From NCBI GenBank assembly GCA_018240465.1, contig JAFEFS010000073.1, forward strand, positions 6,008 through 70,007: DNA of 64,000 bases, given 5' to 3'. The stretch is from Pseudomonadota bacterium. Its GTDB lineage: Bacteria; Pseudomonadota; Gammaproteobacteria; Xanthomonadales; Rhodanobacteraceae. Of this stretch, positions 58,277 through 64,000 are shown one piece after another (position 1 is the first letter of the stretch; each line of letters begins with the position of its first letter). The position numbers and the translations under genes were made by a program. The notes beneath the pieces are model-generated. The model ran no database searches. It was not told the DNA's origin and saw nothing but the letters and a program-made list of their open reading frames with translations.

Positions 58277-59194
58277 ATGCCACCCATGCCCGAAAACGAA
58301 GCCGCCGACCGTCTGATCGTCGCGATCACTTCGCGCGCGCTGTTCGACATGGCCGAAAGCCACGCGTTGTTCGAGCAGGCGGGCCTCGAGGCGTTTCATA
58401 GGTTCCAGCGCGAACGCGAGAACGACGCGCTGGTGCCCGGCATCGCTTTTCCGCTTGTGCAGAAACTGCTCAGGCTGAACCCGCCGAAACCCGAACCGCC
58501 GCGCGTCGAAGTCATCCTGCTTTCGCGCAACTCGACCGACACGGGTCTGCGCATCTTCAATTCGATCGAGCATTACGGCCTCGACATCGCGCGTGCCGCG
58601 TTCACCTCGGGCGCGGCGGTATGGCCTTATGTGCGTTCGTTCGGTGCGCAATTGTTCCTGTCGGCCAACCCGGAAAGCGTGAAAAGTTCGCTCGATGCCG
58701 GCATTGCTGCCGCAACGATCCTGCCGTCGAAGGCGCCGGCCGCATCCTCGGATCAGTTGCGCATCGCCTTCGACGGCGATGCGGTCATCTTCGGCGACGA
58801 GGGTGAGCGCGTATCGCAGGAGCACGGTATCGAGGCATTCCATCGGCACGAGGTAGAGCGTGTCGACCAGCCCCTGTCCGGCGGGCCTTTCCGCGGTTTC
58901 CTCGCCGCACTGCATCGTTTGCAGGAGGCGTTCCCCGAGGAGAACTCGCCGATCCGCACCGCGCTTGTCACCGCGCGTTCCGCGCCCGCGCACAAGCGCG
59001 TGATCCTGACCCTGCGCCACTGGGGCGTGCGTCTCGACGAGGCACTGTTCCTCGGCGGCCGCGACAAGGGGCCGTTCCTGGAAACCTTCGGCGCCGACAT
59101 TTTCTTTGACGACTCCGCGCACAACGTCGAGTCCGCGCGCCGCCATGTCGCCACGGGACACGTGCCGCACGGCGTGTCGAACGAGAAGCGCTGA
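58277..59194 (+). CDS. 5'-nucleotidase (cN-I-like family)
   Basis: VAITSRALFD, LRIAFDGDAVIF, LVTARSAPAH, DIFFDD; start 58277 or 58286. Confidence 0.9.
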   Translation: MPPMPENEAADRLIVAITSRALFDMAESHALFEQAGLEAFHRFQRERENDALVPGIAFPLVQKLLRLNPPKPEPPRVEVILLSRNSTDTGLRIFNSIEHYGLDIARAAFTSGAAVWPYVRSFGAQLFLSANPESVKSSLDAGIAAATILPSKAPAASSDQLRIAFDGDAVIFGDEGERVSQEHGIEAFHRHEVERVDQPLSGGPFRGFLAALHRLQEAFPEENSPIRTALVTARSAPAHKRVILTLRHWGVRLDEALFLGGRDKGPFLETFGADIFFDDSAHNVESARRHVATGHVPHGVSNEKR

Positions 59195-59327
59195 GCACGG
59201 TTGCTGCCTTGCCGCGCCGCTGGAGGGCGGGCGTGCGACGCGCGCCCTGCGGCATGACTTCGTGCAAAGGGCAGGCCGGCGGAAAGGCCCGGCCGATCCG
59301 GCGCGTCGCAGACGCTGCGACGAAATG

Positions 59328-59361
59328 TGGTATTCTTGATTTTCGTTCGGAAATCAAGAAT
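59328..59361 (+). promoter_or_regulatory. Extended -10 promoter overlapped by a perfect 11-bp inverted repeat (candidate operator)
   Basis: TGG-TATTCT (59328-59336); ATTCTTGATTT-N8-AAATCAAGAAT (59332-59361), ending 4 nt before the ATG. Confidence 0.75.
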
Positions 59362-59365
59362 TGCG

Positions 59366-59947
59366 ATGAAGCAGCTTCCATCCCATGGCGGAGCCCGGCC
59401 CGGCGCCGGGCGCAAGCCCGGTTCGAACCGCTACGGCGAGCCGACGACTCCGGTTCGCGTTCCGCAAAGCCGCCTCGCCGCCGTCCGCTTCTATCTCGAC
59501 GAATGCGCGGCCGGAAAGCGGATGCGCCTTTCCGCTGCCGCCAACGACGCGTTCGCTCCGCCATTCCTGAACCTTCCTCTGATCGGCCGCGTCGCCGCCG
59601 GCCAACCCATCGGTGCCGATGCGCAGGTCGAACGCGAGATCGCGATCGATCGCCACCTGTTCCGTCCGCGTCCGGATTTCCTCCTGCGCGTCGAGGGCAT
59701 GAGCATGCGCGACGCCGGCATCCTCGATCGCGACCTGATCGCGGTGCATCGCACGCCCGAGGCACGCAACGGCCAGATCGTCATCGCGCGCATCGACGGC
59801 GAGATCACCGTCAAGGAATTCCGGCGCACGCGCTCGCGCATCACGCTGCTGCCGGCCAATCCCGACTTTGCGCCGATCGAGGTCGATCCGCAGGCAGATG
59901 ACTTCGCGATCGAAGGCCTTTACGTCGGCGTGATCCGCCTGCCGTAG
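59366..59947 (+). CDS. lexA: LexA-like S24 peptidase/repressor with non-canonical (UmuDAb-like) N-terminal domain
   Basis: C-domain GRVAAGQP (Ala-Gly site), RVEGMSM (Ser), TVK (Lys); N-domain [27 protein letters not shown] instead of a winged helix. Confidence 0.85.
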
Positions 59948-59956
59948 ACATTGCGC

Positions 59957-60595
59957 ATGAGCGTCCTGGCCGCCATCCCCGATTCCGCGATCGATGCGGT
60001 GCTGCGTGATCCGCGCGTCTGGCGTGGCGCGGCGAACGAGCACGAGGTCGCGTGCGTGCCATCCGGACATGCCGCGCTCGATGCAATCCTGCCGCATCGC
60101 GGCTGGACCCAGGGCGCTATGACCGAGATCCTGTTCGACGCGGATGGCACCGGCGAGCTTGCGCTCGTCCTGCCGGCGCTGGCACGACTGACCGGGCAAA
60201 AGCGCCACGTCGTTCTCGTCGCGCCGCCCTACCTGCCGTATGCGCCAGCCTTGTTCGTCAGCGGCATCGACCTTGGCTACCTGCATTGCGTGGAGGCGAG
60301 CGCGGATGCCCAGGCGTCGTGGGCCGCCGAACAATGCCTGCGCTCGGGCGTCTGCGCGGCGGTGCTGTGCTGGCCGCGCCAGGCGACGGATCGCACGCTG
60401 CGCCGCCTGCAGGTCGCGGCCGAATTCGGCAACGCGCTCGGCTTTGCCTTCCGTCCCGCGCGTGCTGCGGCGAACCCTTCGCCTGCACCGACGCGCATCC
60501 GCCTGCAGGCGGGCGAGGGCACGCATCTGCGCATCCTCAAATGTCGTGGCGCCAATCCGCCCGCGCGTTCGATCCCGTTGCGGCAGGCCGGGTAG
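59957..60595 (+). CDS. imuA: Translesion synthesis protein ImuA
   Basis: SGHAALDAILPHRGW...TEIL, GELALVLPAL, WAAEQCLRSG, LRRLQVAA, LKCRG. Confidence 0.93.
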   Translation: MSVLAAIPDSAIDAVLRDPRVWRGAANEHEVACVPSGHAALDAILPHRGWTQGAMTEILFDADGTGELALVLPALARLTGQKRHVVLVAPPYLPYAPALFVSGIDLGYLHCVEASADAQASWAAEQCLRSGVCAAVLCWPRQATDRTLRRLQVAAEFGNALGFAFRPARAAANPSPAPTRIRLQAGEGTHLRILKCRGANPPARSIPLRQAG

Positions 60596-60604
60596 GGGAT
60601 ACCG

Positions 60605-62047
60605 ATGCTTTGGGCGGCCTTGCTGTTGCCACGTCTCGGACTCGATGCGCTCGCGCGCAGCGTGCCGGATGCGGATGCGCGCATGCAGCAGCTCGCGTTG
60701 GTCTCGCGCGACCAGGCATGTCCGCTGATCGTCGATGCGATGCCGCGCGTGCGTGAAGCCGGCGTGCGCCGCGGGCAGACTCTGGCCGCGGCGCAGGCGC
60801 TGTTTCCAGCACTGAAAACCGCAGTACGCGATCCCGCGCAGGAATGCCGGCTGCGCGAACTGCTCGCCGGCTGGGCCTACGGTTACAGCTCGCAGGTGAG
60901 CTTGCGCGAGGACGATGCGATCCTGATCGAGGTCGGCGGCAGTTTTTCGCTGTTCGGCCCGTGGCCGCGGCTGGAGCGGCGCTGGCGCGAGGAGCTGAAC
61001 GCTCTCGGCATCACGCATCGGCTCGCCGTTGCGCCGACCGCGCTTGGCGCGCTCGCGCTCGCACGCGCGCAGGATGGTGCGCTCGTCGGCAACGCGGCAA
61101 CGCTGCGCCAGGCACTGGATGCATTGCCGATCGGGCATGCACGCCTCGACCCGCTCGTGGTCGAGGCGCTGCGCGGCATGGGCCTCTCGCGCCTGCGCGA
61201 AGTCTACGCATTGCCGCGCGCCGGCTTGATCCGCCGTTTCGGCGCCGCGCTTGCCGAGCATCTCGACCGCCTGCGCGGCGCGGCGCCGGATCCGTTGCCG
61301 CTGTATCGCCCGCCCGACCGTTTCCACGCACGCATGGAATTCGATCACGAGATCGAGTCGAGCGAAACGTTGCGTTTTCCGCTGCATCGTCTGGTCGGCG
61401 ATCTTTGCGCCTTCCTGACCAGCCGTGACGGCGGCGTGCAACAACTCGCGATCGTGCTCGAACACGACCCGCTGCAGTTCAGGCAGCGCGCGCCGACGCG
61501 GCTGGCGATCGGCCTGCAGTCGCCGCAGCGCGACGCGCGCACGATCTTCGAACTTTGCCTGCTGCGCCTGCAGGCAAGCCCGGTTCCCGCGCCGGTGCGC
61601 GCGCTCGGCGTGCAGGCCGAGAACCTGCCGCCGTTCGTACCGCTGGCGCGCGACCTGTTCGACGAAGCGCGCGGCGCGCAATTGGACTGGCCGCAACTGG
61701 CCGACCGGCTGCACAACCGGCTCGGCGCCGATGCGGTGTACGCGCTCGCGGTGGCCGACGATCCGCGTCCCGAACATGCCTGGCGCAAACGCTCAATCGC
61801 GCCAGCCGCAGCCCCCGTGCGCCGGCCCGGACCACGCCCGGGCTGGCTGCTGCGCCGACCGCTGCCGTTGCGCGGTGAGCCGAAGCGCATCCTCGCCGGC
61901 CCCGAGCGCATCGAAGCGGGTTGGTGGGACGGAGGTGACCTGCGCCGCGACTACTACGTGATCGAAACGCAGCAAGGCCAGCGCGCCTGGGCATTTCGCG
62001 GCATCGGCGGCGAAGCGCCGTGGCTGCTGCACGGATGGTTCGCGTGA
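60605..62047 (+). CDS. imuB: Y-family polymerase-like ImuB
   Basis: Between imuA and dnaE2; IEVGGSFSLFG, AVAPT, C-terminal GPERIEAGWWDG...RDYY. Confidence 0.93.
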   Translation: MLWAALLLPRLGLDALARSVPDADARMQQLALVSRDQACPLIVDAMPRVREAGVRRGQTLAAAQALFPALKTAVRDPAQECRLRELLAGWAYGYSSQVSLREDDAILIEVGGSFSLFGPWPRLERRWREELNALGITHRLAVAPTALGALALARAQDGALVGNAATLRQALDALPIGHARLDPLVVEALRGMGLSRLREVYALPRAGLIRRFGAALAEHLDRLRGAAPDPLPLYRPPDRFHARMEFDHEIESSETLRFPLHRLVGDLCAFLTSRDGGVQQLAIVLEHDPLQFRQRAPTRLAIGLQSPQRDARTIFELCLLRLQASPVPAPVRALGVQAENLPPFVPLARDLFDEARGAQLDWPQLADRLHNRLGADAVYALAVADDPRPEHAWRKRSIAPAAAPVRRPGPRPGWLLRRPLPLRGEPKRILAGPERIEAGWWDGGDLRRDYYVIETQQGQRAWAFRGIGGEAPWLLHGWFA

Positions 62048-62059
62048 GATTCCGCCGGC

Positions 62060-64000
62060 ATGAATACCGCGCCCGAATACGCCGAGCTGCATTGCCTGTC
62101 GAATTTCTCGTTCCAACGCGGCGCCTCGACCGCGCTGGAACTGTTCGAGCGCGCGGCTAAGCTCGGCTACCGCGCGCTCGCGATCAGCGACGAATGCAGT
62201 CTCGCCGGCATCGTGCGCGCGCTGGAAGCGTCGCGCGAAACCGGAGTCGCACTGATCGTCGGCAGCGAGATCCATCTCGACGATGGCCTCAAGCTCGTCC
62301 TGCTTGCGCCGAATTTCGCCGCCTACCAGTCGCTCTGCGCGCTGATCACGCGGGGGCGGCGCGAGGCGAAGAAGGGCGGATATGCGTTGCGCCGTGCGGA
62401 TGTCGCCGCGCATGCGCATGGCCTGCTCGCCCTGTGGATTCCCGGCGAAACCCCGGCACCGGATGATGCAGAGTGGATAAAACGGCATTTTCCACAACGT
62501 GCCTGGCTGGCGGTCGAACTGCATTGTGGCGCGGACGACGCCGCGCGCCTGCGCCAGCTGCTCGACTTTGCCGCCCGTCACGAATTGCCCGCCGTCGCCG
62601 CGGGCGACGTGCACATGCACGTGCGCCGCCGGCGTGCGTTGCAGGACATGCTGACCGCGATCCGCCACCACACGACGCTGCGCGCCGGCAGCGGCCACCT
62701 GTTCGCGAACGGCGAACGCCACCTGCGCCGGCGCGAGGCGCTGGCCGAACTTTATCCACGCGAGCTGCTCGCGGAAACACTGCGCATCGCGGCGCGCTGC
62801 ACGTTCGACCTGAAGCGCGATTTGAAGTATGCGTATCCGGGCGAGATCGTGCCGCGCGGGCATACGCCGACAACCTGGCTGCGGGATCTGGTCGAACAGG
62901 GCATCCGCTGGCGCTGGCCCGAAGGCGAAGGCGCCGCCGCGCGCGCGCAGATCGAGATGGAACTCGCGTTGATCGCCAAGCTCGGATACGAGTCGTACTT
63001 TCTCACTGTCAGCGACATCGTGAACTTTGCGCGCGGCAAAGGAATTCTCTGCCAGGGGCGTGGATCGGCGGCCAATTCCGCGGTGTGCTTTTGCCTCGGC
63101 ATCACCGCGGTCGATCCGCAGCGCTCGAAGCTGGTTTTCGGCCGTTTTTTGTCGGAGGAACGCGGCGAGCCGCCCGATATCGACGTCGACTTCGAGCATG
63201 AACGGCGCGAGGAGGTCATTCAATACATCTACGCCAAGTACGGCCGCGACCGCGCAGCGCTGGCGGCAACGGTGATCAGCTACCGGACCCGGAGCGCACT
63301 GCGCGACGTCGCCCGCGCGCTCGGATTCTCCGCCGATCAGGTCGCCCAACTGAGCCGCTCGATCTCGGTACACGACGACGGGGAGACCATGGCCGCACAC
63401 CTGGCCGAGGCTGGCTTCGACCCGGCCGCGCCGATGCTGCGGCGAGCGCTCGTGCTTGCGCGCGAACTGCACGGATTTCCGCGCCACCTTTCCCAGCATG
63501 TCGGCGGCTTCGTCATCTGCGATGCGCCTTTGCACACGCTCGTGCCGGTCGAGAACGCGGCAATGGCCGGGCGCACGATCATCCAGTGGGACAAGGACGA
63601 CCTCGACACGATGGGCCTGCTCAAGGTCGACTGTCTCGCGCTGGGCATGTTGACCTGCATCCGCAAATGCCTCGATCTGCTGCGTGCGCATCGTGGCCGC
63701 GATCTGACGATGGCCACGATTCCGAAGGAAGACGCCGCCACCTACGCGATGATCCAGCGCGCCGACACGGTCGGCGTGTTCCAGATCGAGTCGCGTGCGC
63801 AGATGGCGATGCTGCCGCGATTGAGGCCGAAGGAGTTCTACGACCTGGTCATCGAGGTCGCGATCGTGCGGCCCGGGCCGATTCAGGGCGACATGGTTCA
63901 TCCGTACCTGCGCCGGCGACAGGGCAAGGAAGCGGTGAGTTATCCGTCGCCCGAGATCCGCGGCGTGCTGGAACGCACGCTCGGCGTGCCGCTGTTCCAG
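62060..64000 (+). CDS. dnaE2: Error-prone DNA polymerase III alpha DnaE2/ImuC (3' partial)
   Basis: [60 protein letters not shown]; open to window end. Confidence 0.96.

Follow-up and report, generated by a model that had tools for sequence, protein, structure and literature searches.

In the present study, a 64,000-nt stretch of DNA from a Rhodanobacteraceae soil bacterium (assembly GCA_018240465.1, contig JAFEFS010000073.1), referred to as the window, was analysed with regard to the gene at positions 59366-59947 of the forward strand, which encodes an S24 repressor of 193 aa plus stop and stands first in an imuA-imuB-dnaE2 (mutasome) operon. The gene is a natural chimera, in which the winged helix of LexA2 has been replaced by a head of the type known from Acinetobacter UmuDAb while the LexA2 self-cleavage domain was kept, and which would encode a RecA-cleavable repressor of the mutasome operon. 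Directly supported are the architecture, the homology of both halves, the catalytic residues, the co-conservation of head and operator, the link to imuABC, selection, and a mosaic visible in the DNA. The chimera is real and conserved, and probably functional; by analogy with characterised repressors, its product is most likely a RecA-cleavable autorepressor of the mutasome operon that was retargeted from a LexA box to a UmuDAb-type operator.

Architecture and distribution of the chimeric repressor

The gene was delimited by translation, Pfam, NCBIfam and alignment. Peptidase_S24 (PF00717) was the sole Pfam domain of the 193-aa open reading frame (ORF; residues 71-186, E 3e-33), and LexA_DNA_bind (PF01726) was not found in it by Pfam. 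The original prediction, made from the letters of this stretch without database searches, had described a LexA-type C-terminus and no winged helix; this hidden Markov model scan, an AlphaFold2 (AF2) model and Foldseek agree on both points, and the sequence motifs quoted there, including TVK, are all present in the ORF translation. The LexA-type S24 self-cleavage and dimerisation domain (C-domain) covers residues 68-193 (59567-59944, forward strand), as judged from PF00717, alignment, Foldseek and AF2. The lexA equivalog model TIGR00498 matched with 138 bits, above its cut-off of 110.95 and confined to profile positions 67-200, and the UmuD model NF007621 gave 83 bits, under its cut-off of 110. 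The cleavage site Ala78-Gly79 (59597-59602), the catalytic Ser113 (59702-59704) and Lys150 (59813-59815) are invariant across all alignments made; with these sequence determinants present, RecA*-stimulated self-cleavage of the chimera would be expected.

Between the C-domain of the window protein and those of winged-helix LexA2 proteins, identity was 80-88% (84-88% for P0043-P0051). With Foldseek the domain was matched to the LexA C-domains of P. aeruginosa and E. coli at 54-59% identity and a root-mean-square deviation of 1.3 Å, and UmuD' trailed these at 35% identity. In the AF2 model, which was built on 82 sequences, the predicted local distance difference test (pLDDT) values were >90 in the C-domain and <50 in residues 55-61 of the linker. 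The linker itself (residues 48-67; 59507-59566, forward strand) was recognised by BLASTP, DNA identity, the ratio of nonsynonymous to synonymous substitution rates (dN/dS) and pLDDT. When the chimeras were aligned with winged-helix LexA, the proteins were unrelated up to about residue 50 and near-identical from LxLPL(I/V)GRVAAG on, and BLASTP of the window protein against the winged-helix LexA P0063 gave an alignment starting at G50. With AGKRMRL, the linker begins much like the last LexA wing strand, PGKARAIRL, and this start looks like a remnant of that strand.

The N-terminal UmuDAb-type domain (the head; residues 1-47; 59366-59506, forward strand) was defined by alignment and AF2 and comprises a Gly/Arg arm, an x3-RVP segment and a helix at residues 34-48. 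Pfam with this domain alone returned nothing, even at E<=10, and PHROGs only phrog_21736, whose function is unknown. A search with residues 1-60 yielded a second family of 192-206 aa, in which the same head (57-80% identity) is joined to a UmuD-type C-domain and whose members are termed long UmuDs here. The sequence of UmuDAb was recovered by tblastn of a long UmuD against PLSDB, which matched A. baumannii chromosomes deposited as plasmids. The A. baumannii ORF (L001:1438-2049) encodes 203 aa starting with MPKKKEFEHGGARENAGRKAQFNEPTKVIRVPESQV, agrees with the length and the Ala83-Gly84 cleavage site of UmuDAb (PMC4807011) and has the published UmuDAb operator, AACTTGAAAATGTAACTTTTTCAAGTT, upstream. 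BLASTP of this protein against the window protein (P0001) gave an alignment from residue 6 with E 1e-23, by which both the UmuDAb motif cited in the original prediction and the N-terminal homology it had proposed were verified.

In an N-terminal alignment of chimeras, long UmuDs and A. baumannii UmuDAb, 12 columns were invariant and 3 more nearly so, and the pattern HGGxRxxAGRK...EPT...R(V/I)P.S is common to the chimera, A. baumannii UmuDAb and ~50 long UmuDs before umuC. Mutation of E24 or K40 in UmuDAb abolishes repression (PMC4807011, PMC11332147), as does deleting or disrupting its N-terminal domain (PMC4807011); in the BLASTP alignment, E24 corresponds to E25 and K40 to R41 of the window protein. 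The AF2 head consists of a low-confidence arm (1-20), an extended GEPT-x3-RVP segment and a single helix (34-48), without a winged helix, whereas three helices had been modelled earlier for the N-terminus of UmuDAb (PMC4807011). These features suggest that the Gly/Arg arm may be AT-hook-like and may precede a ribbon-helix, i.e. half a ribbon-helix-helix, which would be formed only on the S24 dimer, a reading that departs from the helix-turn-helix proposed for UmuDAb.

Among 5.8 billion proteins queried with the window protein, ~40 protein clusters from isolates, metagenome-assembled genomes (MAGs) and metagenomes have the same architecture (185-197 aa, S24 only); winged-helix LexA proteins ranked next. 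One genome per GTDB species was additionally scanned with the motif RPGAGRKPG, resulting in 70 loci. Five of these are chimeras with a LexA-type C-domain: two come from MAGs and three from Rudaea, one of them from the cultured R. cellulosilytica DSM 22992 (L004). The next gene is imuA in 5/5, and imuB-dnaE2 follow in four, the contig of L006 ending within imuA; four more metagenomic chimeras from divergent subclades each have imuA next. The place of the gene in front of the mutasome genes, on which the original prediction had been built, thus held in a survey of cassettes, imuA following the chimera in 10/10 loci, with imuB-dnaE2 too wherever the contig continues. Three winged-helix LexA proteins could be located on contigs (including P0046) and each was the first gene of an imuA-imuB-dnaE2 operon; these proteins are therefore classical LexA2 cassette leaders, an arrangement that the original prediction had given as usual for Pseudomonas and Xanthomonas.

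About 50 scan loci consist of a long UmuD followed by umuC; their hosts include Rhodanobacter, Dyella, Frateuria, Tahibacter, Oleiagrimonas, Methylophilaceae, Nitrosomonadaceae, Methylococcales, Thiocystis (Chromatiaceae), Thiobacillus, Neisseria, Kiritimatiellia and Verrucomicrobiota (L008-L070). NCBIfam splits chimeras from long UmuDs cleanly, NF007621 giving 159 bits for UmuDAb and 146 for the long UmuD P0125. At one locus of the Betaproteobacteria MAG GL46 (L038:3064-5271), a UmuD-type long UmuD (NF007621, 152 bits) with the same head and operator heads imuA-imuB, which is a second, independent route of placing ImuABC under a UmuDAb-type regulator.

Candidate operator and its exchange together with the head

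An 11-bp perfect inverted repeat, ATTCTTGATTT-N8-AAATCAAGAAT, was identified upstream of the gene as candidate operator (59332-59361, unstranded) from its uniqueness, its conservation and its UmuDAb-like layout. The repeat, with the core TTGATT TT CGTTCG GA AATCAA, ends 4 nt 5' of the ATG and is the single match to TTGAT-N10-14-ATCAA in the window. Sites of the form TTGATT-(A/T-rich)-GTnAC/GTTC-(A/T-rich)-AATCAA precede the chimeras and the majority of long UmuDs. The exact operator motif was present <=150 nt upstream in 25/63 head-bearing S24 loci, an enrichment of >200-fold over the background of 0.0017 per 150 nt that was derived from the flanking 612 kb. The UmuDAb operator dissected by electrophoretic mobility shift assay is TTGA-N4-GTnAC-N4-TCAA, in which AT-rich spacers separate the TTGA/TCAA arms from a central GTnAC (PMC11332147); the window site, TTGA-TTTT-CGTTCG-GAAA-TCAA, is in sequence a near match to this layout, one base longer and with the core GTTCG, and is treated as a candidate. 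Other chimeras have GTAAC or GTTAC operator cores.

The left operator arm is abutted on its 5' side and overlapped by TGnTAnnCT in every chimera locus and in the majority of long-UmuD loci, and in the window this element is a putative extended -10, TGG-TATTCT (59328-59336, forward strand). When 59150-59450 was scanned with simple sigma-70 and terminator consensus patterns, neither a full -35/-10 promoter nor a terminator was detected, and the promoter was therefore called from conservation. A LexA-type box was not found in the 172-nt intergenic region. The palindrome TACTAC-N6-TAGTAG, which abuts the ATG in both winged-helix loci examined (L073, L076), is absent from it. Since these relatives have the same operon position and a near-identical C-domain but another box, operator and head were exchanged together, a point beyond what had been proposed originally.

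The exchange is visible at the DNA level. Over the operator and codons 7-33, identity was 75-76% to the long-UmuD locus L079 and 38-44% to the winged-helix lexA2 locus L073; over codons 48-59 it was 40% and 61%, and from codon 68 onward 39% and 76%, respectively. From these sequence comparisons, the 3' recombination junction is placed at about codons 47-50, because of the wing-strand-like linker start and the BLASTP alignment from G50, and the 5' junction upstream of the -10. The mosaic bears out the domain-swapped origin that had been predicted. It had further been supposed that the swap gave the mutasome its own damage-inducible circuit; here only the swap stands, as the mutasome already had a circuit of its own under winged-helix LexA2, and what changes is the operator that is read. 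Locus L079 (258-5054), a long-UmuD/umuC pair whose head is nearest to that of the window protein, has a phage-type integrase and an SRAP (PF02586) gene as neighbours, so that umuDAb-like/umuC pairs can be mobile and could be donors; SRAP genes are also found a few kb 5' of two chimera cassettes (L081:672-1631; L084:647-1609).

In a C-domain tree, the chimeras are interleaved with winged-helix LexA2, the subclade of the window protein falling into a well-supported clade with 14 winged-helix proteins, and UmuD-type proteins split off with a branch support of 100. This interleaving suggests several swaps. A single origin of the chimeras was not rejected in an approximately unbiased (AU) test (p 0.21), and the head tree (50 columns) did not resolve the branching; for both reasons, nothing is claimed on the number or direction of exchanges beyond parsimony. 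Among Rudaea-clade genes, dN/dS was ~0.2-0.4 for the head, 0.07-0.2 for the C-domain and ~0.7 for the linker. Head and C-domain are under purifying selection, and the presence of the architecture in ~40 clusters together with the dN/dS of the head shows that the feature is not due to chance.

A second inverted repeat, GTCGCA-N5-TGCGAC (59305-59321, unstranded), is located in the -35 region and is the only copy in the window. Its arms are kept and its loop is variable in 9/10 chimera loci (window, L003-L007, L081, L083, L084), whereas neither the long-UmuD locus L079 nor the lexA2 loci L073 and L076, which encode winged-helix proteins, have this repeat. It could be the site of a second regulator or an RNA hairpin; a relic LexA2 box was considered and rejected, as the repeat is unlike the TACTAC-N6-TAGTAG of winged-helix loci. 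Rhodanobacteraceae long-UmuD loci have another palindrome, TCTCA-N4-6-TGAGA, at the equivalent position.

Proposed regulation and competing explanations

In the proposed mechanism, the LexA C-domain would hold the dimer, and the two N-terminal heads would sit on the palindrome. Since the palindrome covers the extended -10 and likely the transcription start, RNA polymerase would be blocked and the bound dimer would shut off chimera-imuA-imuB-dnaE2. DNA damage would lead to RecA filaments and these to self-cleavage at Ala78-Gly79, which would part the heads from the dimerisation domain; binding would be lost and the mutasome expressed. The mechanism follows from the precedents of P. putida LexA2, which directly controls lexA2-imuA-imuB-imuC (PMC3901139), and of UmuDAb. 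From the characterised UmuDAb and LexA/LexA2 systems we infer DNA binding to 59332-59361, repression and RecA-dependent cleavage. Compared with winged-helix LexA2, the operator code would be changed, the mutasome sharing its code with umuDAb-umuC elements instead of using a LexA-type box.

Several observations weigh against this interpretation. A PDB profile search with the N-terminal alignment gave no meaningful solved homologue, which leaves the fold of the head unassigned, and the arm was modelled by AF2 with low confidence. In Acinetobacter, N-terminal point mutants lower DNA binding only modestly, dimerisation weighs more and the co-repressor DdrR assists (PMC11332147), and a DdrR-like gene is missing here. 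The operator core of the Rudaea subclade is GTTCG rather than GTnAC, with a spacing one base over that of Acinetobacter. Finally, the second conserved palindrome at 59305-59321 points to a possible further factor acting on this promoter.

Part of these points would fit an N-terminus that is a flexible basic tail or an arm for protein interaction, in which case control of the operon would fall to the primary LexA of the host or to a factor reading GTCGCA-N5-TGCGAC, a second palindrome whose conservation in chimera loci speaks for such a factor. The low-confidence arm, the occurrence of the Gly/Arg arm alone as a common tag on unrelated phage proteins, and the substantial binding retained by UmuDAb N-terminal point mutants (PMC11332147) could be read in the same way. 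This explanation is nevertheless very improbable, given that head and TTGATT-N10-AATCAA co-occur over >50 loci in several orders, that no LexA-type box lies within the 172-nt intergenic region, that UmuDAb loses repression when its N-terminal domain is deleted or disrupted (PMC4807011), and that the head is under purifying selection. The protein could also be chiefly a UmuD/UmuD'-like polymerase accessory, whose cleaved C-fragment activates ImuB/DnaE2, with the palindrome bound by another regulator. ImuB is a Y-family homologue, the head family is found mostly on UmuD-type domains beside umuC, and at L038 imuA-imuB are headed by a long UmuD of true UmuD type. However, the C-domain is orthologous to that of cassette LexA2 and not of UmuD, as expressed in its 80-88% identity, in the UmuD model score under cut-off and in the lower identity to UmuD' (35%) than to LexA (54-59%); in P. 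putida, repressor function has been proven for the winged-helix LexA2 that occupies this position (PMC3901139), and head and operator co-vary across families. An accessory role is thus considered very improbable.

An artefact of assembly or annotation, e.g. a mis-called start hiding a winged helix, or a pseudogene in decay would be favoured only by its rarity and by the NCBI label of its relatives, simply 'transcriptional repressor LexA'. The ~40 independent protein clusters, one of which comes from R. cellulosilytica DSM 22992, a type strain in culture, the stop codons located just upstream in relatives, dN/dS values <1 and the invariant catalytic residues make this reading practically negligible.

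Beyond the chimeric repressor itself, a broader reading can be put forward only tentatively and is rather doubtful: the ~180-bp unit of extended -10, operator and ~45-residue head could be a portable regulatory cassette, with an AT-hook/ribbon-helix head, by which ImuABC would have come under the umuDAb-umuC code. Its partners may be UmuD, LexA2, a DNA methylase or none, as in standalone proteins. If true, this would imply a LexA-box-independent 'mutagenesis regulon' in Rhodanobacteraceae and cross-talk between resident and incoming error-prone polymerases, umuDAb-umuC elements being often mobile and integrase-linked.

Relation to known systems, operon context and further head arrangements

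UmuDAb of A. baumannii and A. baylyi is a self-cleaving repressor of umuDC and ddrR. The chimera shares with it the homologous head of ~45 residues (HGGxRxxAGRK, EPT, RVPxS and a helix in which the K40 position is basic), the operator layout with TTGA arms, AT-rich spacer and GT-containing core, an S24 module with Ala-Gly, Ser and Lys and, as an inferred target in the case of the chimera, an error-prone polymerase operon. It differs in its LexA-type C-domain (83 bits with NF007621), that of UmuDAb being UmuD-type (159 bits) with GFPSPA after the cleavage site, in its linkage to imuA-imuB-dnaE2 without a divergent ddrR instead of to umuC and/or a divergent ddrR, and in the GTTCG operator core and a spacing that is one base longer. 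Its host is a Rhodanobacteraceae soil bacterium, and winged-helix LexA is present among close relatives. From the LexA2 cassettes of P. putida and the winged-helix forms of Rudaea/Rhodanobacteraceae, the chimera retains the leading position in the same four-gene operon, the C-domain (80-88% identical to that of relatives) and presumably the logic of an autoregulated, RecA-cleavable mutasome repressor; the winged helix-turn-helix (PF01726) is missing save for the possible wing-strand remnant, and the TACTAC-N6-TAGTAG operator is replaced by TTGATT-N10-AATCAA. HdiR of Streptococcaceae and the COG2932 LexA-like repressors of Bacteroidetes (PMC8565304) are likewise self-cleaving S24 proteins with a non-winged-helix head and control of error-prone polymerases, but they have phage-repressor-type helix-turn-helix heads and their own C-domain lineages, whereas the chimera combines a bona fide LexA C-domain with a UmuDAb head.

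The chimera is a variant assembled from two known kinds and not a new kind of system. In a full-text literature search, for which most subscription journals were outside reach, neither a UmuDAb head on a LexA C-domain nor a UmuDAb-type regulator heading imuABC was found described, in line with the original prediction, whose author was aware of no description of this architecture. The gene represents a natural experiment in repressor modularity, in which head and operator moved together onto another self-cleaving scaffold, retargeting the control of a mutagenic polymerase. UmuDAb is placed by reviews as a Moraxellaceae feature (PMC8565304), and its head is usually seen as an oddity of that family whose fold and DNA-binding role are still debated; it is not confined to Acinetobacter but appears here as a widespread and autonomous module whose operator is conserved. 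For covariation and structural work, Acinetobacter researchers are thereby provided with dozens of head/operator pairs that are orthologous, and the predictions are directly testable, as the harmless and cultivable R. cellulosilytica DSM 22992 bears the chimera.

When residues 1-53 were searched with phmmer against 1.84 billion representatives, 159 clusters were obtained at E<=1e-3, including S24 fusions of ~180-220 aa and many short, possibly standalone proteins. Other head arrangements (P0145, P0258, P0143/P0150/P0160) comprise a UmuD-type S24 domain preceded by six tandem Gly/Arg arms, an N6_N4 DNA methylase to which the head is fused, and head-only proteins of 66-71 aa, some short ones of which may be contig-end fragments. 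The arm alone, GG(A/K)RPGAGRKPG, is a frequent N-terminal tag on phage proteins (viral contigs L085-L103), among them terminase-small-like and ribbon-helix-helix-like ones, and is therefore by itself not diagnostic of a UmuDAb head. Viral-contig matches were considered as a sign of a phage-borne chimera and rejected, since mostly only the Gly/Arg arm was in common.

Downstream of the repressor gene, imuA (59951-60595, forward strand; alternative ATG at 59957) was assigned by NF033429 ImuA_translesion with 213 bits against a cut-off of 150, and imuB (60605-62047, forward strand), a Y-family polymerase homologue, by the Pfam domains IMS and IMS_C, both over cut-off. The gene dnaE2/imuC (62060-64000, forward strand; NF004225, 954 bits; PHP, DNA_pol3_alpha and finger domains) is represented by its 5' two thirds and runs off the window. 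All four genes are co-directional, with 3-9 nt between the repressor stop and imuA and gaps of 3-12 nt across the operon. A co-directional 5'-nucleotidase gene followed by the 172-nt gap is located 5' of the chimera; no umuC was found in the window and no divergent small gene in this gap. Synteny with Rudaea genomes, among them that of R. cellulosilytica DSM 22992, in which the 5'-nucleotidase is 90-94% and the NAD kinase 91-92% identical, indicates that the chimera is vertically inherited within the genus. In Rudaea relatives (L004:5545-5862; aligned portion of L003), the chimera is separated from the 5'-nucleotidase gene by an H-NS-family gene (PF00816, 105 aa), on a segment of ~500 bp that is absent from the window (59195-59365).

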